DNA of 64,000 nt from an uncultured Pirellulales bacterium (GCA_964468375.1 CAYXUW010000001.1:28322-92321), one strand, 5' to 3'; counted from the stretch's first letter, positions 40,764 through 59,204 are shown. Numbers and translations: made by a program. The notes: generated from the letters alone by a model not told the origin.

Positions 40764-42905
40764 TTACGCCGTGTTCTTCTGCACTCCGCGGTGGTCAAGC
40801 GCTTTGCATCCGACGTCGATATAGCCCTGCCAGCCGATGCCGAGAACTCCGGGTTGCAGTGTTACTCTTTCGATTGTCGGCGTTCGCTTACCGTTAAGGA
40901 ATGCCACCTCGACGTTATCAGCATCGTTCGGCGATGCCATCAGGAACCAGGTTGTTGCTGAATAATTCGGATAAGCGGTGCTGCTCAGTCTCGATTCTAC
41001 TCCGACTTCCAGTGTGCCCTTATGTACGTTTTTGGACCCGCGTGTCGTATCGGTTGACCCTGCCCTTATGATGTAATCGCTCTCCAGCAGCTCCTTGCCT
41101 GTCTGCTCTAGTTCCGGCGGAATCAGCAAAACAGTCGGCTCAAGGTCTATCGGTTGGTTGTCCTTGTCTTTCTGCTTTCTCATCGCTGCTTTTGCCACGC
41201 CCAAATGTTCACTGGTCAAACTGTTTGTGCCATTCAGGTTGCCATGATCCGCATGGAACAAAGCAACACCGTCCTGCATTGCTCCGTTCGTCATCAAATG
41301 GGTGTAAATCAATTTGGCAATCAAAAGTCTCGATCTTCTTCCGGCGTGGAATGGTACCTTGGTAAGCGCGTTGAGATCGTCATTGATGATTGTCTGTCTT
41401 TCGATGATGATTAATTTGCCGTATGTTGCGATTTTATACTGCTCGTATTCTTCACCGAAAGTCCCGTGCTTCAGCTCGCCGGCGGCGCCGATCTGTTCCC
41501 AGTCGCCGATGTCGGTAACGCGGTTTCTTGTCATCGTTTTGAAGTCCGAAGCGTTTGCTATTGAGCACCACAGCTGCCAGGTATCAGCCGGTGACAGATA
41601 ACCTTTCATCAGACTTTTGTTGATGACCTCGCCGAGAGCTATGGGCAGACTTACTGTGCTGAAAGCGGCTCTGATTGTTTCTCTTCTGCTTGTTGGAATG
41701 GTTCCGCCGTCCAGCACGATGGCGTGTCTGCATATATCTATCAGCGAATTGTCCTGCAGGTGCTTGGCTTTTTCCGCCCGCTGGTCGCCGTTCTTTTTGT
41801 CGTTCTGGAATTCATCTTCATAACCGGCCCGCAGAAGCATCCCGTCCACCAGTATGCCTCTGGTCACATCCTTGTTATGAATATGAATTGCTGGCAACCC
41901 CGCCGATACATCCGCCCTGCTTTCCCGGACTGCCTTCAGAATTTCGGTTGAGGCCTCGGCAACCGACTTACCGTCCTTGATACACCGCTCGATTACCTCC
42001 GCTGGCACATCATCCCCCCCGAGATTTCTTATCGCGTCAACGCGCTCCCGCTCTTCCTTGAGCACCCGCTGGGCGACTTGCTCCGGCGTCTCGTCCTGCT
42101 GGCTGGCATTCAGCTGTGTCGGCTGCACGGCCGTTCTCTGCGCCGGCTCCGGGGGCTTTTTGTTATCCGGCTCTTTTGCGGGTGGATCGGCCTTGTCGCG
42201 TTTCTGCTCGGCCTGCCATTGCTCTTCCAGCTCCGCTCTTTTTTGCTCATCGAGGGTGTCCGGATTTTCCCCTCGCGCAATTAGCCACTTCGTGAATTCG
42301 TCCATTGTTTTTTCTCCTTTAAAAATTTTACTTTTACTTCTGTTTTTCGCGTCCTCATCGGCCCCGATAGGACAAATACTGCTTTCCCCGAGTATCCATT
42401 CGGTGGTTATCCTCAAGTCTCTCGCTGCCGAGGCCTGATACTCCTTGCCCCCGACATTTGCCTTTTCTCCTTTGGGGATAATTACCGAGTTGATCACCCT
42501 GTATCCCGCCGAATTGTCGGTAAGGTGTCCCTCTTTCGTAAGCGTCCAGGCATGCTCGGTGTCTTTGGAGCTGCTGAAGAAATTCCGCCCTATTAACTTG
42601 TCACCTTCGACCCGAAGATTACGTGTGCTTCCATGCTGTTTCTGCACCGTCGAACGATCATGGGTATCAAGCAAAGGAACCTGCCCATTTGCCGGTGCCC
42701 TGAACCCGCTCATAAGCAAAATCTCCTCGATTATCTCCCAGCGTCCCCAGTCCATCACGAGGACCCTGTTCTCTGTAGCAATTACCGCTTCTATTGAACG
42801 CGCCTTTTCATCGAGCGTTTCCATCCGGACCTGATAAGTCCGCGTAGTAAGCTCGTTTCTCTCAATTAATCCTTCAATCTGATTTCGTGTCATCGGCATT
42901 TTCAT
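40764..42905 (-). CDS. Prohead protease (HK97/S78-like) fused to a major-capsid-like domain
   Basis: The N-terminal ~190 aa carry His and Ser motifs (PLLDTHD, DNSAGYRV). Then comes an acidic/Pro-rich linker and ~400 aa of capsid-sized C-terminus. The start is ambiguous (five ATGs between 42893 and 42926); I chose 42905 after GGAG. Confidence 0.7.
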   Translation of the reverse strand: MKMPMTRNQIEGLIERNELTTRTYQVRMETLDEKARSIEAVIATENRVLVMDWGRWEIIEEILLMSGFRAPANGQVPLLDTHDRSTVQKQHGSTRNLRVEGDKLIGRNFFSSSKDTEHAWTLTKEGHLTDNSAGYRVINSVIIPKGEKANVGGKEYQASAARDLRITTEWILGESSICPIGADEDAKNRSKSKIFKGEKTMDEFTKWLIARGENPDTLDEQKRAELEEQWQAEQKRDKADPPAKEPDNKKPPEPAQRTAVQPTQLNASQQDETPEQVAQRVLKEERERVDAIRNLGGDDVPAEVIERCIKDGKSVAEASTEILKAVRESRADVSAGLPAIHIHNKDVTRGILVDGMLLRAGYEDEFQNDKKNGDQRAEKAKHLQDNSLIDICRHAIVLDGGTIPTSRRETIRAAFSTVSLPIALGEVINKSLMKGYLSPADTWQLWCSIANASDFKTMTRNRVTDIGDWEQIGAAGELKHGTFGEEYEQYKIATYGKLIIIERQTIINDDLNALTKVPFHAGRRSRLLIAKLIYTHLMTNGAMQDGVALFHADHGNLNGTNSLTSEHLGVAKAAMRKQKDKDNQPIDLEPTVLLIPPELEQTGKELLESDYIIRAGSTDTTRGSKNVHKGTLEVGVESRLSSTAYPNYSATTWFLMASPNDADNVEVAFLNGKRTPTIERVTLQPGVLGIGWQGYIDVGCKALDHRGVQKNTA

Positions 42906-44406
42906 TTTCTCCATCTTGCTTATCATTTTCCGCAGATGATGTTTTCACACCTGCTAATATTCTCCAGTCTATATCAATGCCTGTTTCCTTCTTTATTTCG
43001 TTTGCCTGCTCGATAGCAGTTTTAATTTCAACAGCCCGTTGCAACATTTCCGGCTGCCAATCCTTACCCTGCAATGAATATTCGGTCTTCAGATTCGTTG
43101 CCACATTCTTGAGCCTCAAATCTTGTCCCTTAGCCTCTTTCTGCGGGTCCACGTGGCCGCTGTCCGGCCAGTTCCAGGAAGGTATTGTCGCTGCGAGGTT
43201 TTTGCCTTTGTAGTATTTGAAGTATCCGGGTATGAGTAGTGCCTCTCGCAGCCATGCGAACAGCACCGGGTTATTTAATTTCAGCTCTATCCATCCACGG
43301 ACAGTTCTTTTAAATTTATTGAAGCTTTGATGGTCGAGCCGGCCTGATGCGTAATTGTATTCCGAAGAATTCGCCGCCGCTATGTTATAAGGCATACTGA
43401 TACAGCGGGCTATTTCGTTTATGATTTCCGCCTTGAACATTTTGTATGTTGTCGAAGGATGTTCCGGCTTCATCTGCTGCATTTCGCCGCCTGGTACTGT
43501 AAGCCATGAGTTCCGCGGAATTTCGACTTCGTCGCCCGCCTCGTATTCGACTGAACTATCGTCTGTCGCCTCTGTTTTAAGCACCCCCGCCACGTTCGCA
43601 GCCATCTCGGCCGCATCGCACGTGGCGAGCGTGTATCGCCTCAACAATGCGAAAAGCGGCAATGCCGGTGTTATCCACGGTATTCCTCTCGATTGTTCGA
43701 ATCTTTTTAATCGATACAGGTGCATCACCTGTGATGCCGGTACCTTGTCGTATTCGCCAAAATTCTTTGAAAAAAGAGATGATCCCGGATGCTGTTTGAG
43801 TATATAGTAAAATGCGGGTTTTCCGTCCCCATCATATTCTATTCCGTCCCTTATTTTATCGTCCAGCACCAGCCCTAGCGGGCTGTCGAGACGATCCGGC
43901 TCTATTGCTCGCAGTCTGAGCTGCGGTTCGCGCCTTACCCTTGTCCATTTCTTCTTGGATCTGGCGTTAACCATTACGATAAGCCCTTCTCCCGAATCGC
44001 ATTGTTGTCTGACTCCCGCTATCTGCTGAATCTCGCCGAACGACAGCTTGCCTTCGATATCACATATAAGAGACCACAGATAGAATTTCTCCTCGATTTC
44101 TTTGTTCGCATCCGGTCCTTCGCCACTCTGGAACTGCAGGTCGGCGCCCGTGCTGATAACTTCATTGACGAGAGTATCGATTATTCCTTCCGCATATGAA
44201 TTATTGCGCACCTCATATCTGCACCTGTTCCGAAGCACAGACAGTCCCTCCCTTATCGCCGAATCGGCGTTGCCGGCGTTCGCCCAAAGCCAGTGGTTCT
44301 CGTTATGCCGATCCGTGGCAGCAGCGTCAAAGCTTCTGGCCGCGGCGTGCGGCGGATGTCCCTTCCTCTGGACTCCAGTTTCTACAAATCCACCTAATAA
44401 GCTCAT
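42874..44406 (-). CDS. Portal protein (lambda gpB-type by size and order)
   Basis: 510 aa. It lies between the gpW-like gene and the protease-capsid gene, and pairs with a GpA-family terminase. Confidence 0.75.
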   Translation of the reverse strand: MSLLGGFVETGVQRKGHPPHAAARSFDAAATDRHNENHWLWANAGNADSAIREGLSVLRNRCRYEVRNNSYAEGIIDTLVNEVISTGADLQFQSGEGPDANKEIEEKFYLWSLICDIEGKLSFGEIQQIAGVRQQCDSGEGLIVMVNARSKKKWTRVRREPQLRLRAIEPDRLDSPLGLVLDDKIRDGIEYDGDGKPAFYYILKQHPGSSLFSKNFGEYDKVPASQVMHLYRLKRFEQSRGIPWITPALPLFALLRRYTLATCDAAEMAANVAGVLKTEATDDSSVEYEAGDEVEIPRNSWLTVPGGEMQQMKPEHPSTTYKMFKAEIINEIARCISMPYNIAAANSSEYNYASGRLDHQSFNKFKRTVRGWIELKLNNPVLFAWLREALLIPGYFKYYKGKNLAATIPSWNWPDSGHVDPQKEAKGQDLRLKNVATNLKTEYSLQGKDWQPEMLQRAVEIKTAIEQANEIKKETGIDIDWRILAGVKTSSAENDKQDGENENADDTKSD

Positions 44407-44648
44407 CTGCTTCTCCGCTTAAGAAATCTGTCGAGCCACAGATCTGTAATTAAAATCGCACCGACGGCTATAAGCGCCGCCGCGCTGTTGTATTGCCTCA
44501 CTCCCGCCCATATAAAAACAAGCGCTGTGACGGCCGTCAGGGAATCGATTTTCTTTGATATATATTTGATTATGGTTTTGAAACGTCTCCCCGCGGCCGC
44601 CGCTACGCTCGTAACTGAACTTTTTATTTTTGAAATTTGAATTTTCAC
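44403..44648 (-). CDS. Small membrane protein
   Basis: 81 aa. GTG start with a GTGA overlap. Hydrophobic segment TALVFIWAG...AALIAVGAILI. Confidence 0.45.
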   Translation of the reverse strand: MKIQISKIKSSVTSVAAAAGRRFKTIIKYISKKIDSLTAVTALVFIWAGVRQYNSAAALIAVGAILITDLWLDRFLKRRSR

Positions 44649-44866
44649 GTTCTTATCCCCGGTGATTTGAGGCGTGTTATTCTGAACGGCACTTTGTTAT
44701 TTATCTGAAGCTGCAGGGCCGCGTAATACTTTCTTGTTTCCCGCAGTTCCTTTAAACTCCGGTATGTCACCATCTTGCCTTGCTCCTGAAGCTGTATGGG
44801 CTCCCCTACCCAGTTCAGTATCGCCTCGTCGATTGCGTCTATAATTACAGTATAATCCGCCGCCAT
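44645..44866 (-). CDS. gpW-like head-tail joining protein
   Basis: 73 aa. EQGKMVTYRSLKELRETRKYYAALQLQ parallels lambda gpW [26 protein letters not shown], and it sits just upstream of the portal gene. Confidence 0.55.
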   Translation of the reverse strand: MAADYTVIIDAIDEAILNWVGEPIQLQEQGKMVTYRSLKELRETRKYYAALQLQINNKVPFRITRLKSPGIRT

Positions 44867-44880
44867 CTCGTACTTCCTTA

Positions 44881-44930
44881 AGCCAAAAGAAAAAGCGCCA
44901 GGCGGGTATGCGGCCCCGCATGGCGCTTTT
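44881..44930 (-). terminator. Strong intrinsic terminator-like hairpin directly upstream of the head genes
   Basis: AAAAGCGCCA (44891-44900) pairs with TGGCGCTTTT (44921-44930), with an inner GCGGG/CCCGC stem. On the minus strand it is followed by TTTTTCTTTT, then the AAGGAAG RBS and ATG 44866. Confidence 0.65.
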
Positions 44931-45026
44931 ATCTTCCAGCCGAAATAATAAAGAGCTTCTTTACATTAGTAATTTTCGGTATGTGGCGGGCGTTTTGTCA
45001 ACGCCTAATACGATGAATTAAGGATT

Positions 45027-45082
45027 GCGGTCTATATATAGCCAACTATTTTACAGGCGGTCTATATATAGCCAATTATTTT
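45027..45082. repeat. Two 26-bp direct repeats with a palindromic core
   Basis: GCGGTCTATATATAGCCAA(C/T)TATTTT occurs at 45027-45052 and 45057-45082. The core CTATATATAG is a 10-bp palindrome. Confidence 0.85.
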
Positions 45083-45087
45083 GACCG

Positions 45088-45663
45088 CTATTCGTATTTT
45101 TTTCTTTCTCTCTCGGCCTTGCGCAAATCTTCTACCTGATCATAGCAGCTCTTTTTGGCCGCCCGGCAATTAATTATTTCCTCTTCCACTGCGACCGTAT
45201 CGATGTCTATATCCGGATTTCTCTTTGCAAGGTTTTTGATTTTCGACAGCTCTCGTTCTTTTCCGGCCAGCAGGCGGGCGCGTTTTTTAAGAAAGCTTAT
45301 CTGGTTATCATTCGCCCGCTGCGAACTCATCTTCGCCTCAATCGCGGCTATTTTGTCCCAGCTATCTTGTATTAATTCTTCTACTCTTTTTCTTCTCAGT
45401 GCTTCTTTTTCCGCCGCTCTGTCCCTACCCGGCCTTTCTCTTTTGATGATCTGGCTGTTGGGCTCTTCTGAGGATTCTTCCGTATACTCCTCTGTGTTTT
45501 GTTGCTCCTCGAGTATTTCGATGCGCCCTTCAAGCTCTTCGATCCTGCTCTCGAGCTCTGCAACTCTTTCATCCATGTCCGTTTCGGGCGTGTCCTGCTC
45601 GGCGCTTACGGGCAATGTCACAAGAAATATGAACAGAACCCCTATATATAATAACCGTTTCAT
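45088..45663 (-). CDS. Secreted coiled-coil protein
   Basis: 191 aa. A signal peptide (LFIFLVTLPVSAEQ) is followed by heptad-like ELESRIEELEGRIEILEEQ. Confidence 0.65.
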   Translation of the reverse strand: MKRLLYIGVLFIFLVTLPVSAEQDTPETDMDERVAELESRIEELEGRIEILEEQQNTEEYTEESSEEPNSQIIKRERPGRDRAAEKEALRRKRVEELIQDSWDKIAAIEAKMSSQRANDNQISFLKKRARLLAGKERELSKIKNLAKRNPDIDIDTVAVEEEIINCRAAKKSCYDQVEDLRKAERERKKYE

Positions 45664-45678
45664 AATTTCCTCTCCTTT

Positions 45679-45885
45679 CTAAGAACTGCTTAAAATTTCG
45701 AATTTTTTAATATTAACAACTTTTCTGCCTTTTATTTTTTCTACAGTATATTCCTGCACCACAAAACCAATTTCGCGCGGCGGCGGAGCTGGTGGCGGTG
45801 ACGGTTTTTTAGCTCTGTCCGGCGGTCCCGGATTCGATTCTTTTTTCTTCACCATCCTTCGCCTCTTTAATAAGCTCCAAGTCAT
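45679..45885 (-). CDS. Possible Pro/Lys-rich small protein
   Basis: 68 aa. It overlaps the upstream ORF by 47-77 nt depending on the start, so its reality is uncertain. Confidence 0.35.
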   Translation of the reverse strand: MTWSLLKRRRMVKKKESNPGPPDRAKKPSPPPAPPPREIGFVVQEYTVEKIKGRKVVNIKKFEILSSS

Positions 45886-46102
45886 CCTTCATTTGTGACA
45901 ATATGTTCCTGATTTTGCATAATGCCGTTGCTATTATTTTCTTGAAATCCGCAGGTTTGATAGTATCATTTTTTTCTAATACCTTGAACTTCTCTATAGA
46001 ATAACAAAATCCCAATTTCAATCTTATCTCTAACATAGACAAATCAGCAGGATTGCTGCTGACCATTATTTTATGTTTATCAATAAATTCTTGAACGTCC
46101 AT
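45809..46102 (-). CDS. Hypothetical protein (spans the unit junction)
   Basis: 97 aa with a GGAGGTGAAAA RBS. ATG at 46102 equals position 12 of the unit, and its first 12 nt also appear truncated at window positions 1-12. Confidence 0.55.
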   Translation of the reverse strand: MDVQEFIDKHKIMVSSNPADLSMLEIRLKLGFCYSIEKFKVLEKNDTIKPADFKKIIATALCKIRNILSQMKDDLELIKEAKDGEEKRIESGTAGQS

Positions 46103-46126
46103 TTTTCACCTCCGGGCTTTGCCCGT

Positions 46127-46162
46127 CCCCGCGTTTAGCTCCGACCGGTCGGAGCTGCGGGG
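46127..46162. other. GC-rich palindromic stem-loop (second copy)
   Basis: Exact second copy (+46090) of 37..72. Confidence 0.6.
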
Positions 46163-46163
46163 G

Positions 46164-46340
46164 TCATTTCAGTGTCTCGAGTATCCGTTCTAAATTTCCC
46201 GCCGTTATTTCGCTTCGGCCCTGCAGGTAATTATATATCGTCTGTGGATTCAAATCAACTTCGCGTGCGAGCTGCGGCACGCTCATCCTTTTTTTCTTAA
46301 GCAATCTATCTATCTCGCTGCGAAAGTCTACCTTCTTCAT
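46164..46340 (-). CDS. XRE-family HTH regulator (second copy)
   Basis: Exact second copy (+46090) of 74..250. Confidence 0.7.
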   Translation of the reverse strand: MKKVDFRSEIDRLLKKKRMSVPQLAREVDLNPQTIYNYLQGRSEITAGNLERILETLK

Positions 46341-46359
46341 ATTGTTGTTTCCTTATTGC

Positions 46360-46707
46360 TTAGCTTTTCGGCATCCCCAGTGCCTCGGATATATTTGCGC
46401 CGTCCATATTCGCATCTTCAAAATCAGCACCGTCAATATCTGCAGCATATAAATCCGCATCGGTCAGATTCGCATTTCTAAAATTCGTACCGGTAAGAAA
46501 AGCGGCATATAAATTTACACCTGAAAGATTCGTATCGGACAAATCAGCCCCGGAAAAATCCAGTCCGGATAAATCCTGGCCAGACATATCAGCGCCGGAT
46601 AGATTTACATGTTTAAGTATTGCCTTGCTTACCGCCTCTCTGAAATTTTTTGCTTCGGCAAAAAACAAGATTTCTCCTGTGGTTTTATGTTTGATTTCGA
46701 TTTTCAT
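46360..46707 (-). CDS. Pentapeptide-repeat protein (second copy)
   Basis: Exact second copy of 270..617 with identical translation. Confidence 0.85.
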   Translation of the reverse strand: MKIEIKHKTTGEILFFAEAKNFREAVSKAILKHVNLSGADMSGQDLSGLDFSGADLSDTNLSGVNLYAAFLTGTNFRNANLTDADLYAADIDGADFEDANMDGANISEALGMPKS

Positions 46708-46820
46708 ATCGTCCCCGCTGCTATATTTAGGGCCAGTTCCGTTTTTGTCGGCCAGAAACCGAATCTCCTTTTAAACCGTTTTTCCGCCGCCGTTTTTGTT
46801 CTTTTTCTTCGCTTTTCCAT
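46704..46820 (-). CDS. Possible small basic protein (second copy)
   Basis: Exact second copy of 614..730. Confidence 0.3.
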   Translation of the reverse strand: MEKRRKRTKTAAEKRFKRRFGFWPTKTELALNIAAGTI

Positions 46821-46868
46821 TTTCCTGTTCCTTTCCTATTTACACTATATTTTCAAATGAGCTAAGAA

Positions 46869-47021
46869 TTATAACATATCCCAATCTGATGCACTCAAAA
46901 ACAGGATTTTGCCTTTGTATTTAACACTCCAACCTGAATATTGACCGGTATAGGTAACTATTAAATGCCCTCGCAATCTTGCGCCTGTCATTACGTGTTT
47001 GAATGTTTTCACCTTGGCCAT
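46869..47021 (-). CDS. Hypothetical small protein (second copy)
   Basis: Exact second copy of 779..931. Confidence 0.45.
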   Translation of the reverse strand: MAKVKTFKHVMTGARLRGHLIVTYTGQYSGWSVKYKGKILFLSASDWDML

Positions 47022-47048
47022 TTTTCACCCTTTCATATTAATTTATCA

Positions 47049-47087
47049 ATTCTATTATAATTATATAACTATAATAGAATAAGTCAA
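47049..47087 (-). promoter_or_regulatory. Promoter TTGACT-16-TATAAT with overlapping 11-bp inverted repeat (second copy)
   Basis: Exact second copy of 959..997. Confidence 0.6.
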
Positions 47088-47139
47088 GCAAAAATAACAG
47101 GTTTTTTAAATATTTTTTAAACCCCCTGTTTGCAGGCAT

Positions 47140-47355
47140 TTAGGGCTTATCTTTCTTTTTTTCGTATACTTTTTCGATAATCTCCTTGGTCCGGACTACG
47201 GTTCCGCAGTTTCTGCATATTTTCCGGCGGCGGATCGCCCCGAAAACAGGCATCGTTTTCACGCAGCTCCAGGGCCTGCCCGCTTCATCGCGGAAATCCT
47301 CGCATCCGCAAGTCGGGCAAATCAACCCCTTTTGTTTTTTGCTGTCTTTGCTCAT
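47140..47355 (-). CDS. Small zinc-ribbon protein (second copy)
   Basis: Exact second copy of 1050..1265. Confidence 0.7.
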   Translation of the reverse strand: MSKDSKKQKGLICPTCGCEDFRDEAGRPWSCVKTMPVFGAIRRRKICRNCGTVVRTKEIIEKVYEKKKDKP

Positions 47356-49319
47356 CTCAACCGTTTCTGTTTTTGCAGCTCGCTCAGTTTTATTTTCTTT
47401 TTACCCCTCGTCGCTGCCGCCGGTGCTACTTTCTTTTCCCCGGGCGCCTTCAGATAATGTACGCCCTTGTAATAGCCGGCCGCCGCTGCAAGCACCTCGA
47501 GGTCTAGTGAATGTGTCGGCGCCCCTTTCGAGACCGGCTCCCATACCCATTTGATATTATTATTCCTGTCCCGTTTTTTGATTTTATGCTCGTTGGAAAA
47601 TTCAGTCAGGTAGTAATAAGGAATTTCACTGTAAAAAGTCAGTAATGGTGATTTTATAACTTCGCCTTTATCGTTCCGCTGCGGCTCGGCCCAGCTCTGC
47701 ACCTGGTTCTTAAAGTAATGCGTATCGACTATTACAAGCTGCATACCTCGATATCGGCGCCGCTGTTTTTGTGTAAGCCGTCTTTCTGTTGCGCTTTCGA
47801 CATCTGATATCGCCAAAGGTTTCAATAACGGTCCGGGCACGCCCTTGGTCGGAATAGTCAGTCCCGGCCGCTGCCTGCAGTACTCATATACGTCATCCGG
47901 CTCATCCGCTGCAAAATGCTGAAATCCGGAGTCCACGAACATTACCATAACCGCAAGCCACGGCTTCTGCTCGTTCGATGTCCCGTCCGCCCAGGGGAAC
48001 GGACTGAGCAATACCTCTTCGTCGAGCTTATCGAACGATGAAGCGTGACCACTTTTTATAGTGCAGTTTTTCAGTCCGTATCCGTATCCCTTTATTGTAT
48101 AATCGATTCGCACAATTCCGCGTGTTCTCGATTTATGATAATCCGCCGCTGCAACAAGTATATTCACCCAGTCCGGCACCGTCCCCTTGCTGAATCCGCC
48201 GGTAAGTTTTTTCAGCTCGCTCGTTTTAAGCTTTTTGCCCACTTCCTCGAATGGCACTGCTTCGATGGAATTCTTGAAATCGATTAAAGCCCCCTGCGCA
48301 ATACCCTCTTCCGTATTTGCCTTTAGCCATTTGGCCATAATTCTCGGCCAACTCATTCCCTCGAATGGTGATATCCATCCGGGCGCATTAAAGCCGCTGT
48401 GCCTTTCGTCCCTCAGCGGCCGGCCGTGAATATTGCCGTCGGCGTCCATGGTTTGGCCTTCCGGTAGCCACTCGCCGGCGGCAACAAGCGCTTCTTTCTG
48501 GATTTCCTCTATCCGATGTGCGCAGCGCTGGCATTCGTACCATACGCAGCCGACACCTTCTCTTATGATTTCATCCGGGTCCGTCAGTTTCGGCGGCTTT
48601 TTGAATTGTATCCAGATCCAAATAATATATTCGCCGCAATGAGGACAGGGTATGTAATATTTTTCTTTGTTAGATTCCTGATAAGGCCCGTCTATATAAT
48701 CCTTCGGGCTGACAGGCGTCGATACCCTGACAATTTTCCTATCCCAGAAAGTCGTTGTCGTTTTAATTGCGATATCTATCGGATTGGACTCTCTTCCGGA
48801 AAAGGGCGGGTATGCCGTGGGCTCGTCGAAGAACAGGTTCTTAATATGTTTTTGTTTCAACTCTGCTGTCGATCCCGCCCATCCGAAGTATAGCGTCATC
48901 CTGTCGAAGCTGAAATAATCGCCTTGCAGATCTCGCGGTCCTGATGTATGACCTAGCAGCGCATCGGACAGCTCTACCATCGGCTTAAAAACTTTCTCTT
49001 TGGTATAGTCGACATCTCTTTCTCTCGGTACAACGTATTGTGTATTTGCCGGATCCTGCTCGATAACGGATGCTATCATATTCTGCACGGCGGTCGATTT
49101 GCCCATCTGGCGTGCGAACATCAAATCCAGTTCCTCCACTATTGGGTTATTGAACGCATCCATTGGTTTGCGCATATAGGGTGTTCTGTCTGTCCGGTAA
49201 GGTCCGGGCTCAGCGCAATCCGGAGGCAATATTCTTATCTTGTCTGCGCATTCGCTGACAGATAGTTTCTCGGGTATCCGCCAAATATCCTTCTCTTCTT
49301 TAGTCCAGATTGTTTTCAC
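47352..49319 (-). CDS. terL: Terminase large subunit, GpA family (second copy)
   Basis: Exact second copy of 1262..3229. Confidence 0.9.
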   Translation of the reverse strand: MKTIWTKEEKDIWRIPEKLSVSECADKIRILPPDCAEPGPYRTDRTPYMRKPMDAFNNPIVEELDLMFARQMGKSTAVQNMIASVIEQDPANTQYVVPRERDVDYTKEKVFKPMVELSDALLGHTSGPRDLQGDYFSFDRMTLYFGWAGSTAELKQKHIKNLFFDEPTAYPPFSGRESNPIDIAIKTTTTFWDRKIVRVSTPVSPKDYIDGPYQESNKEKYYIPCPHCGEYIIWIWIQFKKPPKLTDPDEIIREGVGCVWYECQRCAHRIEEIQKEALVAAGEWLPEGQTMDADGNIHGRPLRDERHSGFNAPGWISPFEGMSWPRIMAKWLKANTEEGIAQGALIDFKNSIEAVPFEEVGKKLKTSELKKLTGGFSKGTVPDWVNILVAAADYHKSRTRGIVRIDYTIKGYGYGLKNCTIKSGHASSFDKLDEEVLLSPFPWADGTSNEQKPWLAVMVMFVDSGFQHFAADEPDDVYEYCRQRPGLTIPTKGVPGPLLKPLAISDVESATERRLTQKQRRRYRGMQLVIVDTHYFKNQVQSWAEPQRNDKGEVIKSPLLTFYSEIPYYYLTEFSNEHKIKKRDRNNNIKWVWEPVSKGAPTHSLDLEVLAAAAGYYKGVHYLKAPGEKKVAPAAATRGKKKIKLSELQKQKRLR

Positions 49320-49948
49320 CTACTGAATCCCTCTATAATTGCCCTGTTTTCTTTATTTAAAAGTGCCTGTATCTTCCGGGGGTCGTTAATCGCTGCGAGC
49401 TGCATGGCAAGTTTCCTGCCCTGTCCCAGCAATGCCCTCTTTACAGCGAGTATTTTCAAGGCGTCCCTTCGCTGCTCCTCTTCTTTGTCTATCCACTTTC
49501 CCCTTTCTATGTTGTATTGCATTATTTCCCGTTGTTCGCGGACTGATTTTATTCCCGCCTCACTTTTTTCTTTCAGCAGTTTATGCTCGGTCGGTTTTTT
49601 CCCTTCGTTCGCTGCGAAAAGTTTAAGCTGACTCTTGATATATACCTGCTTACCGCCTCTTGTAGCCGTCAGCATCCCCTCTTTTAACCAGCGACGGATC
49701 GTCCGTGCGCTTTTACCGATAAATCGTGCCGCTTCGGTCTGCGTTTCGATAATCTCGGCCTCTGCGATTTCGGCCGCGCTTTGGTTTTTCGACTTTGTTT
49801 TTTTCTTTTTTTCTGCCATTGTTTCCAGCTCGCCCAGCTCGTTCATCTCCTGTCTGCTCAAATGCCTGTTATTTCTGATTTTCGTCAAAAGATACAGGTG
49901 CCGCTGCTTTTGAGCGATTTCAACCGGGTCATGGGCGTTTTTATTCAA
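49316..49948 (-). CDS. Putative terminase small subunit / HTH protein (second copy)
   Basis: Exact second copy of 3226..3858. Confidence 0.5.
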   Translation of the reverse strand: MNKNAHDPVEIAQKQRHLYLLTKIRNNRHLSRQEMNELGELETMAEKKKKTKSKNQSAAEIAEAEIIETQTEAARFIGKSARTIRRWLKEGMLTATRGGKQVYIKSQLKLFAANEGKKPTEHKLLKEKSEAGIKSVREQREIMQYNIERGKWIDKEEEQRRDALKILAVKRALLGQGRKLAMQLAAINDPRKIQALLNKENRAIIEGFSR

Positions 49949-49991
49949 CTACAATCTGTTTTTCTCCGATAGTTTTACAGTCAAGCAAAAT

Positions 49992-50068
49992 GCCGATGCG
50001 AAAAAATGTTCCGCCGGCTGATCCCGGCGTAACAGGCGGTTAGTCTGATAGTTTCCGCCCGCATCGGC
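49992..50068. other. Nested inverted repeats (second copy)
   Basis: Exact second copy of 3902..3978. Confidence 0.5.
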
Positions 50069-50097
50069 TCCCTTTTATTCATAGGCGTCCCTGCCTT

Positions 50098-51411
50098 TTA
50101 TTTTCTAATCAGTTTTGCCTTCTTTCCTGTCCATTGTTCCCACCGTTTCACGGCAACGTCGCAGAAAACCGGCTCCAGCTCCATAGCGAAGCATCGCCTG
50201 CCGAGTTTCTCCGCCGCTATAATTTGCGATCCGGACCCACAAAACGGCTCATAGCAGATATCCCCGGGCCGCGTATGCACCCGCATTGGGATTGCGAACA
50301 CCTCGACCGGCTTTACTGTCGGGTGTTCGATATCCTGATTTCTTTTTTTGCCGTCCCAGTCCAGTTCCCAGACATCCGTGTAATATTCCGGCTCGGTAGG
50401 GTCACCTTCTTTTTGATATCCTACATACCATACGCTGCCAACTGCTTTATCTTTCGGCCTGAATGCCGGCTTGCTGCCTTTCGGCCACATCAGCAGGCAC
50501 GGCTCATGCCGCCAGGCATAATAGGAAAATGTTATCACCGCGCAGGGTTTGACCCAGATAATCTGCTGGTGAACGAGAATTTTCAATTCTTCACAAATTT
50601 GCTCTATCATGCATTTGTGCTTGGATGCATACCACATATATATAGCGGTCTTTTTCTGTATATATTTAAGGCCGATTTCCAGAAATCCCTTCATGAATCC
50701 CCTGGGGTCAGTGATATCGATTTCCCGAAACGTATCCGACCAGTCTTTGCCGCCTTTTTTCGCGGGCCTGTTAGCCCCTGTATAATCAACGCAATACGGC
50801 GGGTCCGTCGCAAACAGACTTGCCTTCTGATTTTTCATTAAATATTTGACATCTTTTTTATTCGTGCTGCTGCCGCAAAGCAGGCGATGGTCTCCGAGCA
50901 GCCACAAGTCGCCCTTTTTTGTTCTCGCCTTTTTCGGCGGTTTTGGTATATCATCGTCATAAGTTTGCCCTTCTTTTTCATGAACACCAACTTCGCTATG
51001 AAGTGCATCCAGTTGAAGTGCCAGATAATCTTTATCGTTCGACAGCTCCGAACGGAGCTTGTCTATATATTCCCCCAATGCGTTAATAAACCTGCCCTGG
51101 CAATGGCGATTATTGAGCGTCAGATTAAGAAGTTTTTCGTCCTTAACGTTAAGCCGAACGGTAACGCACCAGCATTTATATTTTTCGCCGTGCATATCAG
51201 CCAATACGCGGTACCGCTGATGCCCGCCAACAATAATGTTCTTCTTGGTCTTAACATTCACGATAATCGGCTCGACGCATCCGAACTTTTGTATCGACGC
51301 TGCCAGGCCCGCCAAGGCCTCGTCGCTTATTACTCGCGGGTTATACTCCGCCGGCTGCAGCTCGCCGAGTCTGAACTGTTTTATTTCTGGTCGTATTTCT
51401 CTCTTTTTCAT
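50098..51411 (-). CDS. ParB-domain DNA methyltransferase, DPPY type (second copy)
   Basis: Exact second copy of 4008..5321. Confidence 0.85.
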   Translation of the reverse strand: MKKREIRPEIKQFRLGELQPAEYNPRVISDEALAGLAASIQKFGCVEPIIVNVKTKKNIIVGGHQRYRVLADMHGEKYKCWCVTVRLNVKDEKLLNLTLNNRHCQGRFINALGEYIDKLRSELSNDKDYLALQLDALHSEVGVHEKEGQTYDDDIPKPPKKARTKKGDLWLLGDHRLLCGSSTNKKDVKYLMKNQKASLFATDPPYCVDYTGANRPAKKGGKDWSDTFREIDITDPRGFMKGFLEIGLKYIQKKTAIYMWYASKHKCMIEQICEELKILVHQQIIWVKPCAVITFSYYAWRHEPCLLMWPKGSKPAFRPKDKAVGSVWYVGYQKEGDPTEPEYYTDVWELDWDGKKRNQDIEHPTVKPVEVFAIPMRVHTRPGDICYEPFCGSGSQIIAAEKLGRRCFAMELEPVFCDVAVKRWEQWTGKKAKLIRK

Positions 51412-52682
51412 TGCTTGATTATTTCTGCCTTCCCGCCTGTCCATTGTTCCCACCGTTTCACCGTTACGTCGCAGTATTCCGGGCTGAGCTCTATCGCATT
51501 ACACTTCCTGCCCAATTTCTCGGCCGCTATAAGAGTCGAGCCGGATCCGCAGAACGGCTCGATTATTATGTCCCCGGGCTTGCTCATCAGGTCTATCGCC
51601 TTGCAGGGCAATGCAACCGGAAAACAGGCCTTGTGTTCTTCCATCTGTATTTTTTCTGTTACCGGGATCCGCCAGAAATTACTGACTCCTCTCTGCCTGA
51701 TTTTATCGAATGCCCATGTTTTTTGGTTCGTGCCGACGAAGCAAAAATCCAGGTCACAGCCGATATCCCGGTTCGTCAAAAGCAGGATGTTTTCATATTG
51801 CCTGGTCAGGCTTTTATCGCTGGTAATAGGCATAGCCCTTTCTTTGTCCCAGACTATGCTCTCCAGAAAAGTAAACCCGCAGCTTTTTATAAGATGATAA
51901 AAAATTTCGATATATTCCCACCTCGTATTGGCGTTGTAGCTTATATTCCAGAACAGAAAGCCTCGCAGAACCTTCTGCACATTTTTAGCAACAGTCAAAT
52001 TGAAACCGATGTATTGGCTTGACAGCATGCTGTCCTTATAATGCTCATACATATCGCCGCCCATGTTATAAGGCGGTGACGTAAAGCACATCTTCGCTTT
52101 TTTCTTCCCCATTAACTTAAGCACATCCCCCATATCCGTGCTATCGCCGCATAAGAGTTTATGATCACCGATCTGCCAGATATCGCCCGGCCTGGTAATT
52201 GCTTTTTTGGGTGGTTTCGGAATCTCATCATCATCAGTAAGGCCTATTTTTTCACTGGCGCCGAGCTGCTGCCGAAGCAGGCCTATTCTAAGACCCAGAT
52301 AATCCGCATCGTTCGGCAAGGTTTCCCTCAGCTCGTCTATGTACTCGGCCAGCTCCTCAATAAATTCCCCCTGTGTATGCGGATTATTAAGTGCCAGGTT
52401 CAGCAGCTTCTCATCTGTTTCGGACAGATCCACTGTTATACAAACCGCACTTTCGACACCAGTTGCAGACAAAACCTTAAACCGCTGATTGCCGCCGACG
52501 ATAGTATTAGCGCCTTTGCGAACATTAACGATAATCGGCTCGACGCATCCGAACTTTTGTATCGACACCGCCAGGCCGGCCAGGGCCTCATCGCTTATTG
52601 CCCGCGGGTTGTACTCCGCCGGCTGCAGCTCGCTGAGCTTAAACGTTTTTATCTTCGGCTGAATTTGTTTTTTCTTATTCAT
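51408..52682 (-). CDS. ParB-domain DNA methyltransferase, SPPY type (second copy)
   Basis: Exact second copy of 5318..6592. Confidence 0.85.
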   Translation of the reverse strand: MNKKKQIQPKIKTFKLSELQPAEYNPRAISDEALAGLAVSIQKFGCVEPIIVNVRKGANTIVGGNQRFKVLSATGVESAVCITVDLSETDEKLLNLALNNPHTQGEFIEELAEYIDELRETLPNDADYLGLRIGLLRQQLGASEKIGLTDDDEIPKPPKKAITRPGDIWQIGDHKLLCGDSTDMGDVLKLMGKKKAKMCFTSPPYNMGGDMYEHYKDSMLSSQYIGFNLTVAKNVQKVLRGFLFWNISYNANTRWEYIEIFYHLIKSCGFTFLESIVWDKERAMPITSDKSLTRQYENILLLTNRDIGCDLDFCFVGTNQKTWAFDKIRQRGVSNFWRIPVTEKIQMEEHKACFPVALPCKAIDLMSKPGDIIIEPFCGSGSTLIAAEKLGRKCNAIELSPEYCDVTVKRWEQWTGGKAEIIKQ

Positions 52683-52929
52683 AAACCTTCAGCCCTGTAG
52701 ATTCGAGGTCTTTGCTTATTATTGGCAGCAATGGCTGAAGCGGCATATTAAAAGTCGATATCCAGATAAACAGTTTGAAGCCGAAAAGTAATTTCAGTTT
52801 TTCCCGAAACGTCAACTCCCAGCAGCTGACAACTTTGCCGTCTCTTGTTTTGTATGCCGGCAACGGCTTATATTCCGGCTGGTTCTCTGCAAATGTGCAG
52901 TTCTGACCTTCAAATTTTACTGGCTCCAT
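52675..52929 (-). CDS. Hypothetical protein (second copy)
   Basis: Exact second copy of 6585..6839. Confidence 0.6.
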   Translation of the reverse strand: MEPVKFEGQNCTFAENQPEYKPLPAYKTRDGKVVSCWELTFREKLKLLFGFKLFIWISTFNMPLQPLLPIISKDLESTGLKVYE

Positions 52930-52954
52930 TTTTCACCTCGTTTCAGTTGACAAT

Positions 52955-53356
52955 TCATTCATTTTTGACCTTACTGTTGACAAAACTGCCCTGCAAATGC
53001 CTTAAAGTTGCCTCGGCAGTCGGCAGTCCTTTTTGCTTTCTTCTCTGCTGCCAGCTTGTAAACGCGAACACCTTGTCCTCGATGGAGTTCTTCTCTGCGA
53101 TCGTAAACCGCTTCCTGCCGAATCTTTTCATCTCTTCAAGCAGCTCCTGTGCGTATTTTATGTGATGTTTCGGCATCGCCGCCTCGCCGGCCGCCAGAAG
53201 TATTTCGAGCTTCCGTTTCAGCTCCGCCGTCTCAGCAATACTCACAAATCCTAACGGTGCTTTCTCCGCCTCAGTTTCCTCGGGCGCCGGTTTCTCAAAC
53301 AACGGCGCCGTCCGCTGTCTTAACCTGTGCCTGAGCTTCTTTTCAACTATGTTCAT
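52955..53356 (-). CDS. Hypothetical protein (second copy)
   Basis: Exact second copy of 6865..7266. Confidence 0.6.
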   Translation of the reverse strand: MNIVEKKLRHRLRQRTAPLFEKPAPEETEAEKAPLGFVSIAETAELKRKLEILLAAGEAAMPKHHIKYAQELLEEMKRFGRKRFTIAEKNSIEDKVFAFTSWQQRRKQKGLPTAEATLRHLQGSFVNSKVKNE

Positions 53357-53682
53357 TTAAACAGTCCCTTTTGTTTTCTCACCCGCTTACATTGTTCTCC
53401 GCCGACTTCCATAGCCACACAAACATTGGGGCGGGTCGGATAAATCTCACAAGTGTTATCATCCTTCAAAAATGGGCAGGGCATCTTTTCTCCGCAGGCA
53501 AGCAGGTATTCTTTCTCCATATCATCCTCGAATTTTATCCTGCCGTTGCCGTCACACAGCTCAGCTACTGGCCGCAAACGTGGCTCCCTAATCAAATCCA
53601 GCTCCCCAATCTGGATAATCAAACCCCGACAGCATGCGCCGCATTTTTGACATTCCGCCAATGCTTTAATTTTCTCAGCCAT
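53353..53682 (-). CDS. YkgJ/UPF0153-like Cys-cluster protein (second copy)
   Basis: Exact second copy of 7263..7592. Confidence 0.65.
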   Translation of the reverse strand: MAEKIKALAECQKCGACCRGLIIQIGELDLIREPRLRPVAELCDGNGRIKFEDDMEKEYLLACGEKMPCPFLKDDNTCEIYPTRPNVCVAMEVGGEQCKRVRKQKGLFK

Positions 53683-53877
53683 TCAGCAATGTTTCCTTCC
53701 GCAAACAGGGCAGATTTTACCATTGAGGCCGCCGTCCAAATGACTGCATAGTTTCTGGCCTCTTTTCCCTCTGGCAGCGTAACAGCAACTGCCCCAATGT
53801 TTGTGACACTCCATTTGATACCTTCTCACTACCGCCCGCTTGTAAGATACCGAATTAAAACCAAATTCCTCAGTCAT
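53683..53877 (-). CDS. Small Cys/His-rich protein (second copy)
   Basis: Exact second copy of 7593..7787. Confidence 0.5.
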   Translation of the reverse strand: MTEEFGFNSVSYKRAVVRRYQMECHKHWGSCCYAARGKRGQKLCSHLDGGLNGKICPVCGRKHC

Positions 53878-54089
53878 TTAGCTTGCCTCTGTTTTTGTTC
53901 GTAAAGCCGTTGCATTTCAAATCTGTTATTCATCGTAGCTCCCTCTTGTTGAGCCGCAGGACTGCCTATATAATCCTTGCATCCTTGACACATTTCTCTA
54001 ACAACTTTTTTCCCTACCATTCCTATTATCCGACCGCGAGTGGGCGTTCCACAATGCGGGCAGAGATACATTTTCTTTCCCTCAGTCAT
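53874..54089 (-). CDS. Small zinc-ribbon protein (second copy)
   Basis: Exact second copy of 7784..7999. Confidence 0.55.
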   Translation of the reverse strand: MTEGKKMYLCPHCGTPTRGRIIGMVGKKVVREMCQGCKDYIGSPAAQQEGATMNNRFEMQRLYEQKQRQAK

Positions 54090-54096
54090 CGCTTTT

Positions 54097-54519
54097 TTAT
54101 TTCAATGGAATAATGCCACGACCTTTACACCTACCGCAATCAACCCATTCATATGCCTTTATACCTTTACCTGATATACGCTCGCCTTTTTCCCCGTGGC
54201 ATACAGGGCATATATTAAATTCGTCACCGACAAGACTTTCGACTAATTCCCGAAATGCAGCAACTTTTTCAGCCCAAGCGTCGAGGTCACGTTTCTCTTG
54301 TTGCAGGTCGTTATCTTCCTCGCTCAATCTTTTGTGCACATCAAATAAAGTTGTTGTTTGTTCGTGGCCATTAGTTCTAACACCTTTAATCGCAAAATCT
54401 AAATCAATATCAAGGTGCACAAAACCGTGACTACATGGGGGAGGCCCCAAGTCTTTATATGCTTTTCTGATTTTATTTAATATTTTAAGTTCTTTGCCTC
54501 TCGGTGGGTAATCGCTCAT
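54097..54519 (-). CDS. DnaJ-type zinc-finger protein (second copy)
   Basis: Exact second copy of 8007..8429. Confidence 0.6.
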   Translation of the reverse strand: MSDYPPRGKELKILNKIRKAYKDLGPPPCSHGFVHLDIDLDFAIKGVRTNGHEQTTTLFDVHKRLSEEDNDLQQEKRDLDAWAEKVAAFRELVESLVGDEFNICPVCHGEKGERISGKGIKAYEWVDCGRCKGRGIIPLK

Positions 54520-54533
54520 TTTTTACCTCTCTT

Positions 54534-54833
54534 TCACCAATCCATCGTTCCCGCATTTATACAGGCCAGAGTAAACTGGCAGGCAGCTATCATATCTCCG
54601 AGCTCGTGTTTTACGTCGGCAACTTTGCCTTCCTGCATAGCAGCTTCAAGTTCCCGATATTCAAGTCGAATTGCACCGAGCGCTTCGTGCCGGGACGTAA
54701 AAGTTCCAAAGCCCTTTTCTTCAATCACTTTATCAAGGTGCCGTTCCGAAAATCCCTGCGCCCATAGGATATTTTCTCTCGTCACCAATGCCCTCATGTT
54801 ACCTGTATGTTCATTACGAATTGTCGCGTGCAT
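54534..54833 (-). CDS. MazG-like protein (second copy)
   Basis: Exact second copy of 8444..8743. Confidence 0.5.
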   Translation of the reverse strand: MHATIRNEHTGNMRALVTRENILWAQGFSERHLDKVIEEKGFGTFTSRHEALGAIRLEYRELEAAMQEGKVADVKHELGDMIAACQFTLACINAGTMDW

Positions 54834-54847
54834 TTCTTACCTCACTT

Positions 54848-55459
54848 TCAAAATTGCTTTTGCTTAGGCCATTCTGCCCGGCCTAAAATTTTCAAAACTG
54901 AACTGCCCTGAACCTCTGCCCATACAGGGGCTTTGCCCTGCGGCCTACCTCCCCAGCGACCGCACGGATAACGCTTGACAAATTCTCCTTTCCAATCCTC
55001 TAAGTCTGGCTTGCCAAATAACGGCTTATCAACGAGCGGGAAAAGTTCCATTATTTCTGATATAAGTTTTTCGTGAAACCTTCTGAAATCCAATGCCTCG
55101 CTGATATTAAGCCCTTCCAAATATAACCACCAACCCCGATATATAAGTCCGTTAATGCCCGGACACCAAAACACCCATATATACAACGGCTTTCGATAGA
55201 TAATGTCCCTCTCGCGTTTCCAATATAAATGCTCTTCCATTTTTTCTATTTTTCTGCGGAGAATGTCTGATTTATAAGTAAACTCCCAGGGTGCATACAT
55301 ATATTTTCGATAAGCACTCACTGCATCTTCCGGCCAAACAAGCGGCTGAAGTCTATCTACCTCTATCCCAGCCACATTTTTTAGATATTCTTTCGCTCGC
55401 TGGCGGGCTGCTTCGCTCATTTTTGGAGGTTCAAATCCTCTCAGGACAACCGTTGACAT
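54848..55459 (-). CDS. Hypothetical protein (second copy)
   Basis: Exact second copy of 8758..9369. Confidence 0.6.
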   Translation of the reverse strand: MSTVVLRGFEPPKMSEAARQRAKEYLKNVAGIEVDRLQPLVWPEDAVSAYRKYMYAPWEFTYKSDILRRKIEKMEEHLYWKRERDIIYRKPLYIWVFWCPGINGLIYRGWWLYLEGLNISEALDFRRFHEKLISEIMELFPLVDKPLFGKPDLEDWKGEFVKRYPCGRWGGRPQGKAPVWAEVQGSSVLKILGRAEWPKQKQF

Positions 55460-55469
55460 CTTTTCGCTT

Positions 55470-55751
55470 TCAAAATTCCGTAGTCGCAAAAAAGCACGGA
55501 AACTTTATTCCCGATCTGACCATATCCGTAAGCTGTTGCATAAACGACATCGATTTCGTCTTATCGTTCAAATCGGGGAAGTATCGCAGTGACCAAACCT
55601 GCTCGTTCGTCAGTTCTTCCGGGCCCTCGAACTCATCCTCGTCCAGTCCTATCTCGGCCATATACGCCTTTTTGACCGATTCCGCATCCGGCCCCACCCA
55701 CCAGTCACAGTCGCTCATTCTGAAAATCTTCATTCCGCCTATAGCATTCAT
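55470..55751 (-). CDS. Hypothetical acidic protein (second copy)
   Basis: Exact second copy of 9380..9661. Confidence 0.6.
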   Translation of the reverse strand: MNAIGGMKIFRMSDCDWWVGPDAESVKKAYMAEIGLDEDEFEGPEELTNEQVWSLRYFPDLNDKTKSMSFMQQLTDMVRSGIKFPCFFATTEF

Positions 55752-55930
55752 TTCTTCACCTTTAATCTTTTAACCTCTTCTATAGCATAGCTGCCGCATT
55801 TCTCGCACCGCTCCGGCTTGTCCCGGCCGTAACCTGCGGCACAGCCACTGCATTGATAAACCATCTCAAACTGATTTTTATCGATATCTTTCAGATATTC
55901 TTCGACGTCGGCGGTGTTCGGCGGCGTCAC
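55748..55930 (-). CDS. Small zinc-ribbon protein (second copy)
   Basis: Exact second copy of 9658..9840. Confidence 0.5.
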   Translation of the reverse strand: MTPPNTADVEEYLKDIDKNQFEMVYQCSGCAAGYGRDKPERCEKCGSYAIEEVKRLKVKK

Positions 55931-55947
55931 CTTATTCTTATCCGGCT

Positions 55948-56974: not shown

Positions 56975-56975
56975 C

Positions 56976-57868: not shown

Positions 57869-57928
57869 AATTATTCTCCTGTCACGGTTATTGCAGGGTG
57901 CACATTCCAAACTGCGTTTTCACAGCGG

Positions 57929-59201: not shown

Positions 59202-59204
59202 AAA

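Follow-up and report, generated by a model that had tools for sequence, protein, structure and literature searches.

The DNA analyzed here, called the window, is a stretch of 64,000 nt from an uncultured Pirellulales bacterium (GCA_964468375.1, CAYXUW010000001.1:28322-92321), in which the circular genome of a phage, 46,090 bp long, is written about 1.39 times, with the coordinates of open reading frames (ORFs) repeating at that offset. The large terminase gene terL at 1262-3229 is the same gene as terL at 47352-49319 (copy offset 46,090 bp), and window positions 1-17910 duplicate 46091-64000. The subject of this analysis is a cassette of small genes located between terL and the genes for a gpW-like protein and the portal protein. 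The first-pass annotation, made from the sequence alone, described it as an accessory insertion of about 2.3 kb at 45088-47355; its portion 46091-47355 is thus also present at 1-1265. Nearly all genes of the phage are on the minus strand, including terL, gpW, the portal gene and all ORFs of the cassette. For the comparative analysis, all proteins of the window were compared by tblastn with 71 related loci and then with 167.

Gene content and limits of the cassette

The region is flanked by conserved phage genes. On the upstream side, terL (47352-49319) encodes a gpA-type large terminase with ATPase and nuclease domains (PF05876, E = 6e-50; PF20454, E = 3.5e-32). The next gene (47140-47355), with an ATG codon overlapping the terL stop codon, encodes Zn71, a 71-aa zinc-ribbon protein with the pattern CPxCGC...RR.K.CRxCG..RT.E. 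On the downstream side are the genes for a 73-aa gpW-like protein (44645-44866) and a portal protein of the lambda family (42874-44406; PF05136, E = 8e-67). The earlier label gpW holds as far as the position before the portal gene is concerned; by sequence, it corresponds to one weak PHROG match (phrog_2545, head-tail adaptor, E = 0.003). Across relatives, the protein is 43-74% identical, and its gene invariably comes before the portal gene.

All elements previously listed between terL and the portal gene are present. Two of them belong to the phage backbone: the zinc-ribbon gene, formerly counted as accessory, overlaps terL and is conserved after terL across the family, and the terminator at 44881-44930, formerly assigned to the cassette itself, is part of a conserved control region found in relatives with or without an insert. 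Because Zn71 and the terminator are backbone elements, the true accessory block is 45088-47139, about 2.05 kb, and not the span of about 2.3 kb proposed initially.

In the direction of transcription, the block starts with o50 (46869-47021), a 50-aa ORF called as a gene in public assemblies. It has no family match in Pfam or PHROG. We consider it a real gene because a 71%-identical homolog, the only one in the related loci, is located downstream of terL in locus L084, outside the slot described below. The following ORF, o38 (46704-46820), encodes a very basic 38-aa product, and its stop codon overlaps the start of the next gene. It has no homolog, its codon score is about zero, and it is omitted from the gene calls in L079 and L080, two public contigs that are 100% identical to the window phage. 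The status of o38 as a gene is doubtful.

The next gene (46360-46707) encodes PRP115, an acidic pentapeptide-repeat protein of 115 aa (PF00805, E = 2.5e-27). It consists of a 30-aa N-terminal cap followed by about 16 repeats at approximately residues 30-110, which are predicted to form a quadrilateral beta-helix. The repeat part contains 12 Asp and 2 Glu versus 1 Lys and 1 Arg. PRP115 was originally classified with the DNA mimics of the Qnr/MfpA type, an assignment that does not survive comparison with the PDB: the top matches, at 3e-30 to 1e-19, are to designed beta1 and cyanobacterial repeat proteins, as against 2e-12 for QnrB1 and 4e-6 for MfpA, and at 115 aa the chain is roughly half as long as those of QnrB1 (217 aa) and MfpA (186-192 aa). 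The nearest relatives among 5.8 billion proteins searched share no more than about 50% identity with PRP115 and have lengths of 135-200 aa. Seven IMG/VR phages encode pentapeptide relatives that share the N-terminus of PRP115 (MKIEIKHK...). Several of these, in phages unrelated to ours, have Cro/CI-like genes as neighbors and are located in early, replication or immunity regions; two other neighborhoods of PRP115 homologs are unrelated to these contexts. None of the related loci contains a homolog of PRP115.

PRP115 is followed by XRE58 (46164-46340), a Cro/C1-type helix-turn-helix (HTH) regulator of 58 aa, whose matches to PF13443 (E = 3e-9; 37.4 bits, cut-off 22) and PF01381 (E = 3.4e-7; 30.6 bits, cut-off 23) exceed the curated cut-offs. 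Its homologs are found in L046 (57% identity) and L052 (33%, E = 3e-10). The pentapeptide and XRE genes had been interpreted as one unit. However, XRE pairs with a homolog of the last cassette gene in L052 and comes after an unrelated 97-aa gene in L046. A conserved pentapeptide-XRE two-gene unit was rejected, since pentapeptide homologs elsewhere have varied neighbors. No toxin family was found by Pfam, PHROG and PADLOC among the products of the XRE58 neighbors, PRP115 and o97. In addition, a family of small proteins with the pattern ..FDKWLIAEN..YIIHT..PRFIGEILDNE is encoded in L046 (114-594, minus strand) and L094 (7056-7492). Its gene is followed by the XRE58-like gene in L046 and by a different 59-aa gene in L094, and the layout is toxin-antitoxin-like in both loci. 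Neither this family nor the 59-aa partner from L094 has a Pfam family.

The ORFan o97 (45809-46102; 97 aa) has a strong ribosome-binding site and a positive codon score. An exhaustive HMMER search of 1.84 billion representative proteins retrieved o97 itself and two spurious giant repeat proteins. The Pro/Lys-rich o68 (45679-45885) is 68 aa long, or 58 aa if the internal ATG at 45855 is used, as in the public assemblies; its codon signal is weakly positive. Homologs of o97 and o68 are absent from all related loci. The two ORFs overlap by 77 nt in different frames (45809-45885), or by 47 nt with the o68 start at 45855, and the overlap contains the run GAAAAAAG. A programmed frameshift between them was considered and rejected, given the +1 offset between the two frames and the absence of a canonical slippery site.

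The last gene of the block encodes cc191 (45088-45663), a secreted-type all-helical protein of 191 aa, in which a signal-like N-terminus precedes an acidic coiled coil (residues 27-58) and a linker. In its AlphaFold2 (AF2) model, the signal segment and acidic helix are joined by the disordered linker to three helices modeled with confidence, the predicted local distance difference test (pLDDT) being above 90 for residues 80-190. Foldseek comparison of the model with the PDB and BFVD yielded generic helical bundles, none of them significant. A word-index protein search returned only cc191 itself, and a scan of IMG/VR returned nothing. Its single homolog is cc201 of L052 (35% identity, E = 9e-25), located in the same position; the genes for XRE, a small ORF and the cc191 homolog have the same order in L052, directly before the palindromic boxes of the control region. 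Weak spanin-like PHROG matches (E = 0.018-0.043) were also observed. We rejected cc191 as an Rz-type spanin given the weakness of these matches and the lack of a lipoprotein ORF within or adjoining the gene. PADLOC yielded nothing specific for the cassette proteins: the matches of XRE58 are weak and to generic HTH models (E at least 1.5e-3), and that of cc191 to LmuB is at the level of chance (E = 0.044).

The near-consensus promoter with an overlapping palindrome that had been described for the cassette is indeed present in the sequence. The promoter, TTGACT-16-TATAAT (47087..47060, minus strand), matches 11 of 12 positions of the sigma-70-type consensus and is the best site in a 4-kb scan. 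The palindrome (47049-47080; 16+16 nt, 94% complementary), a candidate operator, overlaps the -10 element and has no second copy in the genome. The same kind of promoter directly after Zn71 is found only in the closest relative, L081 (terL 91% and Zn71 85% identical). The L081 palindrome has the same center, and its outer arms are changed on both sides with symmetry retained, which argues that the dyad itself matters.

Between Zn71 and the promoter, there is a weak AT-rich hairpin with a U-run (47093-47130, minus strand; -9.4 kcal/mol, z = -3.6), which could serve as a weak terminator for terL and Zn71; it was not called by the terminator scan. The GC-rich palindromic hairpin reported earlier is confirmed as a nested hairpin after XRE58 (46127-46162, minus strand; -34.3 kcal/mol, z = -4.1), without a U-run. 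An Rfam search of 44300-47500 produced one chance-level match only.

The GC content in the block is 0.32-0.45 versus about 0.50 in the flanks. At third codon positions (GC3), it is 0.37-0.41 for o50, PRP115 (0.37), o97 and o68 versus 0.50 for the genome, and 0.52-0.53 for XRE58 and cc191. Codon scoring supports PRP115, XRE58, o97 and cc191, is weak for o68, and is neutral for o50 and o38.

A variable slot in related phages

The comparison of related phages demonstrates that the block occupies a slot of variable content between two conserved elements, namely the packaging unit formed by terL and Zn71 and the control region of the head operon. The length of this slot, taken as the distance between the end of Zn71 and the beginning of gpW, was determined in 50 loci holding both genes. 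In 35 of them, it is only 97-470 bp and contains the control region alone, in agreement with the earlier view that the block is accessory and not morphogenetic. Eight loci have a slot of 0.6-1.1 kb with extra cargo, including an HNH endonuclease in L005 (12657-13301), L009 and L032. Larger inserts are diverse: HTH-type genes in L016 (2.2 kb); the window cassette in L079 and L080 (2.3 kb); an NYN nuclease and a second copy of Zn71, so that two copies flank the cargo, in L098 (3.1 kb); a TIR protein and a protein with multiple transmembrane (TM) segments in L103 (3.4 kb); a secreted protein and small-gene pairs in L094 (4.0 kb); and a fragment of insertion sequence IS1595, Zn-finger proteins, XRE and the cc191 homolog in L052 (5.3 kb). 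No other locus has a pentapeptide gene at the slot, and the XRE and coiled-coil genes are both shared by one prophage only, L052.

Two of these inserts include defense-type genes. The TIR protein of L103 (1328-2374, minus strand) matches the PADLOC TIR-TM model (7e-59), and the NYN nuclease of L098 (4147-4821, minus strand) matches the HEC-09 model (2e-19); both genes lie opposite in strand to the late genes. In several relatives, a gene for ClpP (1.5e-34; for example, L001:11958-12503) is located between terL and Zn71. The position downstream of Zn71 is a defense and accessory hotspot.

Closely related pairs illustrate the turnover of cargo. The matches to flanking genes are identical in L016 and L017, and the loci differ by a 1.9-kb insert in L016. 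The Zn71 frame is apparently disrupted in L016 (2447-2806, a tblastn match split over two frames) and intact in the insert-free L017 (11935-12141). In the synteny comparison proposed with the original annotation, L081, the closest relative by terL, holds other cargo at the same slot, with the promoter and palindrome after Zn71 followed by an IS1595-type transposase gene (3397-3861; PF12760, 2.8e-14). In L082 (terL 73% identical) there is no insert.

The phage itself is temperate, because a gene for a tyrosine integrase (19841-20860) adjoins a tRNA-Met gene (19182-19255), likely the attP region, and a related prophage is found on a 125-kb contig of a Phycisphaerae metagenome-assembled genome (MAG). 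A second, Xer-like recombinase is encoded at 12377-13111. The family is distant from characterized phages. None of the 50,697 deposited phages gave a DNA match in a blastn search with 6.6 kb of the phage, and terL is less than 30% identical to that of every one of them. A scan of IMG/VR with the single terL sequence yielded nothing, and a profile was required to recover relatives. In total, 153 terL homologs were obtained, the closest named ones coming from Planctomycetota and Phycisphaerae MAGs. The closer relatives (terL 43-91% identical) are all uncultured, the named ones coming from MAGs of Pirellulales, Phycisphaerae and other Planctomycetota.

Taken together, these data allow us to conclude with high confidence that the segment 45088-47139 is mosaic accessory cargo of the moron type, residing in a hotspot of a temperate Planctomycetota phage family, preceded by a consensus promoter with a palindrome and followed by a backbone terminator.

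Origin and possible role of the cargo

The cargo appears to be of at least two origins. One part, of low GC3, would include the promoter and palindrome, o50, possibly o38, and PRP115. The other part seems to consist of XRE58 and cc191, with GC3 similar to that of the genome, and the low-GC3 ORFans o97 and o68 (0.39-0.41) lie between them.

The best explanation overall, which we consider probable, is that the block is self-transcribed moron-type cargo serving conflict or fitness and having no role in head assembly. Transcription by the host sigma-70 RNA polymerase would start at the block's own promoter and would not depend on the late genes, so that it would take place in the lysogen too. XRE58 would bind the palindrome over the -10 element and autoregulate the block. 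Transcripts would pass through cc191 and end at the backbone terminator, leaving the head genes silent. The products could then contribute to host fitness or to conflicts with other mobile elements: PRP115, as a small acidic beta-helix, might bind and block a nucleic-acid-handling protein, and cc191 might be exported to the envelope, for instance for superinfection exclusion. The combination of lysogenic expression with a conflict function is a tentative part of this scenario, and the anti-defense or immunity function suggested by the first-pass annotation is a conjecture.

Several observations weigh against the self-transcribed conflict or fitness cargo. The promoter activity is deduced from an E. 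coli-type consensus, the host being a member of Planctomycetota, and it is assumed that XRE58 pairs with the palindrome. Late read-through could also express the block, which has the same orientation as terL and is separated from Zn71 by a weak hairpin. The cassette has no terminator of its own and in this sense is not a textbook self-contained moron. As for the products, PRP115 is much shorter than known DNA-mimic pentapeptide proteins; o97, o68 and cc191 lack informative homologs or fold matches; and no cassette protein matches a defense or anti-defense model beyond generic HTH. Finally, the three public copies of the phage are 100% identical and thus offer no polymorphism on which selection could be tested.

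Among other explanations, the block could be an anti-defense module expressed at the time of infection, with PRP115 as a Qnr/MfpA-like DNA mimic that would block restriction or some other defense aimed at DNA, and XRE58 as a timer. The strongly acidic character of PRP115 is consistent with this role, as is the location of its phage relatives just after Cro/CI-like genes, typical for counter-defense genes. Moreover, one phage pentapeptide-repeat protein, 24_60 of Vibrio phage 24, was postulated to counter the Sucellos defense system (bioRxiv 10.1101/2024.07.02.601686). However, the PRP115 gene is situated among late genes and not in an early region, its product has about half the chain length of Qnr and MfpA proteins (186-217 aa), which are not its best matches, and no partner or target can be named for it. 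Also, a search for the term "pentapeptide repeat" in the preprint describing the EVADES catalog of anti-defense proteins retrieved nothing. We regard such a module as unlikely.

Alternatively, the block might be selfish or neutral cargo, formed by remnants of mobile elements or an addiction-type pair and kept in a slot that tolerates insertions without any benefit to the phage or its host. The presence of IS1595-type transposase genes or fragments in the same slot of L081 and L052 argues for this possibility, and so do the toxin-antitoxin-like arrangements in L046 and L094, where unrelated small genes are followed by XRE58-like or other genes for small DNA-binding proteins, and the ORFan status of several cassette ORFs. 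On the other hand, the block in the window has no transposase gene at its sides and is bordered by neither inverted repeats nor target duplications, no toxin family could be recognized, and PRP115, o97 and cc191 have a clear coding signal and intact reading frames. Our estimate for this origin is low.

Yet another scenario treats the XRE-ORF-cc191 segment as an ancestral optional part of the backbone, with a role in infection, for example an accessory one in the envelope or lysis, that was lost by most relatives. The gene order retained in L052 directly before the boxes, the genome-like GC3 of XRE58 and cc191, and the spanin-like matches of cc191 would fit such a history. However, the segment is found in only two phage lineages among the 50 loci, and its proteins in L052 are 33-35% identical to those of the window, compared with 74% for gpW, 69% for Zn71 and 56% for the portal in the flanks. 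Also, cc191 has no embedded or adjacent lipoprotein partner, and a candidate amidase and holin are encoded elsewhere, at 16151-17135, away from the cassette. This scenario is quite improbable. A role of the block in head assembly is very unlikely, given the short gap between Zn71 and gpW in most relatives.

The conserved bracket of the slot and comparison with known systems

The elements that flank the slot are better conserved than its content. By tblastn, Zn71 is encoded directly after terL in about 20 loci, at 58-85% identity, and no relative with the same portal type lacks it; a profile scan revealed 80 further metagenome loci. The family members are 58-94 aa long, and 16 columns of the alignment of 17 sequences are invariant, among them those of CPxCGC and CRxCG. 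Matches to zinc-ribbon families of Pfam are sub-threshold only; among them, 12 of 17 members match the NrdR ribbon PF22811, with the best E-value of 2e-4. Comparison with E. coli NrdR by hhalign gave a probability of 26%, NrdR was not retrieved by a Zn71 profile search of the PDB, and no ATP-cone is present in the family. The single-sequence AF2 model of Zn71 is poor (pLDDT 62), and Foldseek with this model was uninformative.

The control region (44867-45085), a stretch of roughly 230 nt preceding gpW, is conserved in relatives with or without an insert; besides the window, it was analyzed in L001, L003, L005, L009, L010, L013, L015, L017, L022, L029, L032, L036, L052 and L082. Its order is constant: (i) one or two palindromic boxes, (ii) a promoter TTGACA-17/18-(c)GAAAAT located 35 or 45 nt beyond them, (iii) a short conserved leader, (iv) a GC-rich hairpin with a T-run, and then gpW. 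In the window, two 16-bp boxes TGGCTATATATAGACC (45059-45074 and 45029-45044) are repeated with a 30-bp period and form the 26-nt direct repeat D1. They are followed by the promoter TTGACA-18-GAAAAT (45001..44972, minus strand), of which both elements, -35 and -10, show conservation in the alignment of 14 phages, by the leader CAnTAATGTAAAG..CTCTTTAC, and by the intrinsic terminator (44881-44930, minus strand; -38.3 kcal/mol, z = -6.45). In the terminator hairpin, 9 of 12 predicted pairs have compensatory changes and the loop is partly conserved (15 phages). The boxes and the terminator hairpin are each unique in the genome. In relatives, the distance between the box centers and the -35 element is 35, 45 or 65 nt, a spacing that keeps the boxes on one face of the helix.

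The boxes are putative operator or activator sites of the backbone and resemble NrdR boxes. The highly conserved positions of the NrdR box are C4, A6, A8, T9, T11 and G13 (PMC13584703), and the window boxes match all six. In 17 upstream regions, 16 perfect boxes are found versus 1.8 expected, and the linker between paired boxes is 14 bp versus 15-16 bp for NrdR. Among 79 non-redundant loci with Zn71, 34 have the strict core motif of the box downstream of this gene, versus 0 of 20 related loci without Zn71, a contrast inflated by shared ancestry. The link of Zn71 and the boxes to NrdR is a lead and not a finding.

Based on these features, a more far-reaching reading can be formulated, to which we give little weight: Zn71, the paired boxes and the promoter-leader-terminator unit may constitute a previously undescribed switch of late genes, with the accessory slot placed inside it and insulated by the terminator, and PRP115 and XRE58 being new conflict cargo. 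Zn71 would then be a stand-alone NrdR-like ribbon lacking the nucleotide-sensing ATP-cone. The boxes would be bound by Zn71, or by host NrdR competing with Zn71, and would set the output of the promoter-leader-terminator unit before gpW. If true, this switch ties expression of the head genes, and possibly the control of host ribonucleotide reductase, to Zn71.

Further genes were noted elsewhere in the phage genome. A 720-aa ORF (40764-42926, minus strand), overlapping the end of the portal gene and conserved in relatives at 46-58% identity, carries the capsid domain PF25209 in the C-terminal half and probably represents a fusion of a protease/scaffold with the capsid protein. Just upstream of terS, there are two successive genes for fusions of ParB-N with a DNA methyltransferase (50098-51453 and 51408-52682, minus strand), and a third ParB-N protein, 566 aa long, is encoded at 14401-16101. 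A 140-aa ORF at 54097-54519 (minus strand) has a weak match to Q-like antiterminators (phrog_6060, E = 1.3e-3), without Pfam support, and is a candidate for a protein acting together with the promoter-terminator leader before gpW.

The cassette adds one example to the mosaic accessory cargo of temperate phages and is of use mainly for the candidates it supplies, a mini pentapeptide protein and a secreted helical one, since the phages of this phylum have hardly been studied. More valuable is the outcome of the comparison: Planctomycetota phages of a widespread family have a cargo slot that is fixed and insulated, with defense-type genes in relatives, and beside a conserved zinc-ribbon gene they have a conserved control region, which is a candidate switch of late genes.

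The cassette can be compared with morons, the insertions within late operons of HK97/lambda-type phages (PMC3594210). As in lambdoid morons, its genes are extra where the genes of relatives adjoin, deviate in base composition and point in the same direction as the late genes of the temperate phage, and judging by sequence the cassette probably has its own sigma-70-type promoter. Unlike them, it contains several genes of at least two origins instead of one gene, relies on the backbone terminator, and carries its own regulator and candidate operator. The hotspots of P2 and P4 (PMC13586616) similarly have a fixed slot between conserved genes with rapidly exchanged cargo, comparable to the TIR-TM and NYN genes in the relatives of our phage. 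They differ in the phage family and host phylum, the slot here is between terminase and head genes, and the window cargo matches no known defense model.

At the level of single proteins, PRP115 shares with Qnr, MfpA, AlbG and McbG the PF00805 repeats and a strongly acidic repeat region, but it is about half as long, is closest to other repeat proteins and has no gyrase context. Protein 24_60 is likewise a phage-encoded pentapeptide-repeat protein and is linked to phage-host conflict, although the host and genomic position are different. The ribbon of Zn71 resembles that of NrdR in two CxxC motifs and the RR(R/Y)K motif, and the boxes resemble NrdR boxes in being paired 16-bp palindromes about three helical turns apart with six conserved positions matched. 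In contrast to NrdR, Zn71 has no ATP-cone and its ribbon matches in Pfam are below threshold, the box linker is 14 bp, and the boxes are upstream of the -35 element and not over the promoter.

The closest parallel to the control region is the PR'-tR' unit of phage lambda, in which a strong promoter, a short leader and an intrinsic terminator precede the late structural genes, as seen here in 14-15 phages. The differences are that no Q protein is recognizable in our phage beyond one weak PHROG match, that conserved boxes are located far upstream of the promoter, and that terS and terL are upstream of the switch and not downstream. The cassette is ordinary cargo of the moron or hotspot type, a known kind, and the conserved bracket that surrounds it is more unusual than the cargo itself.

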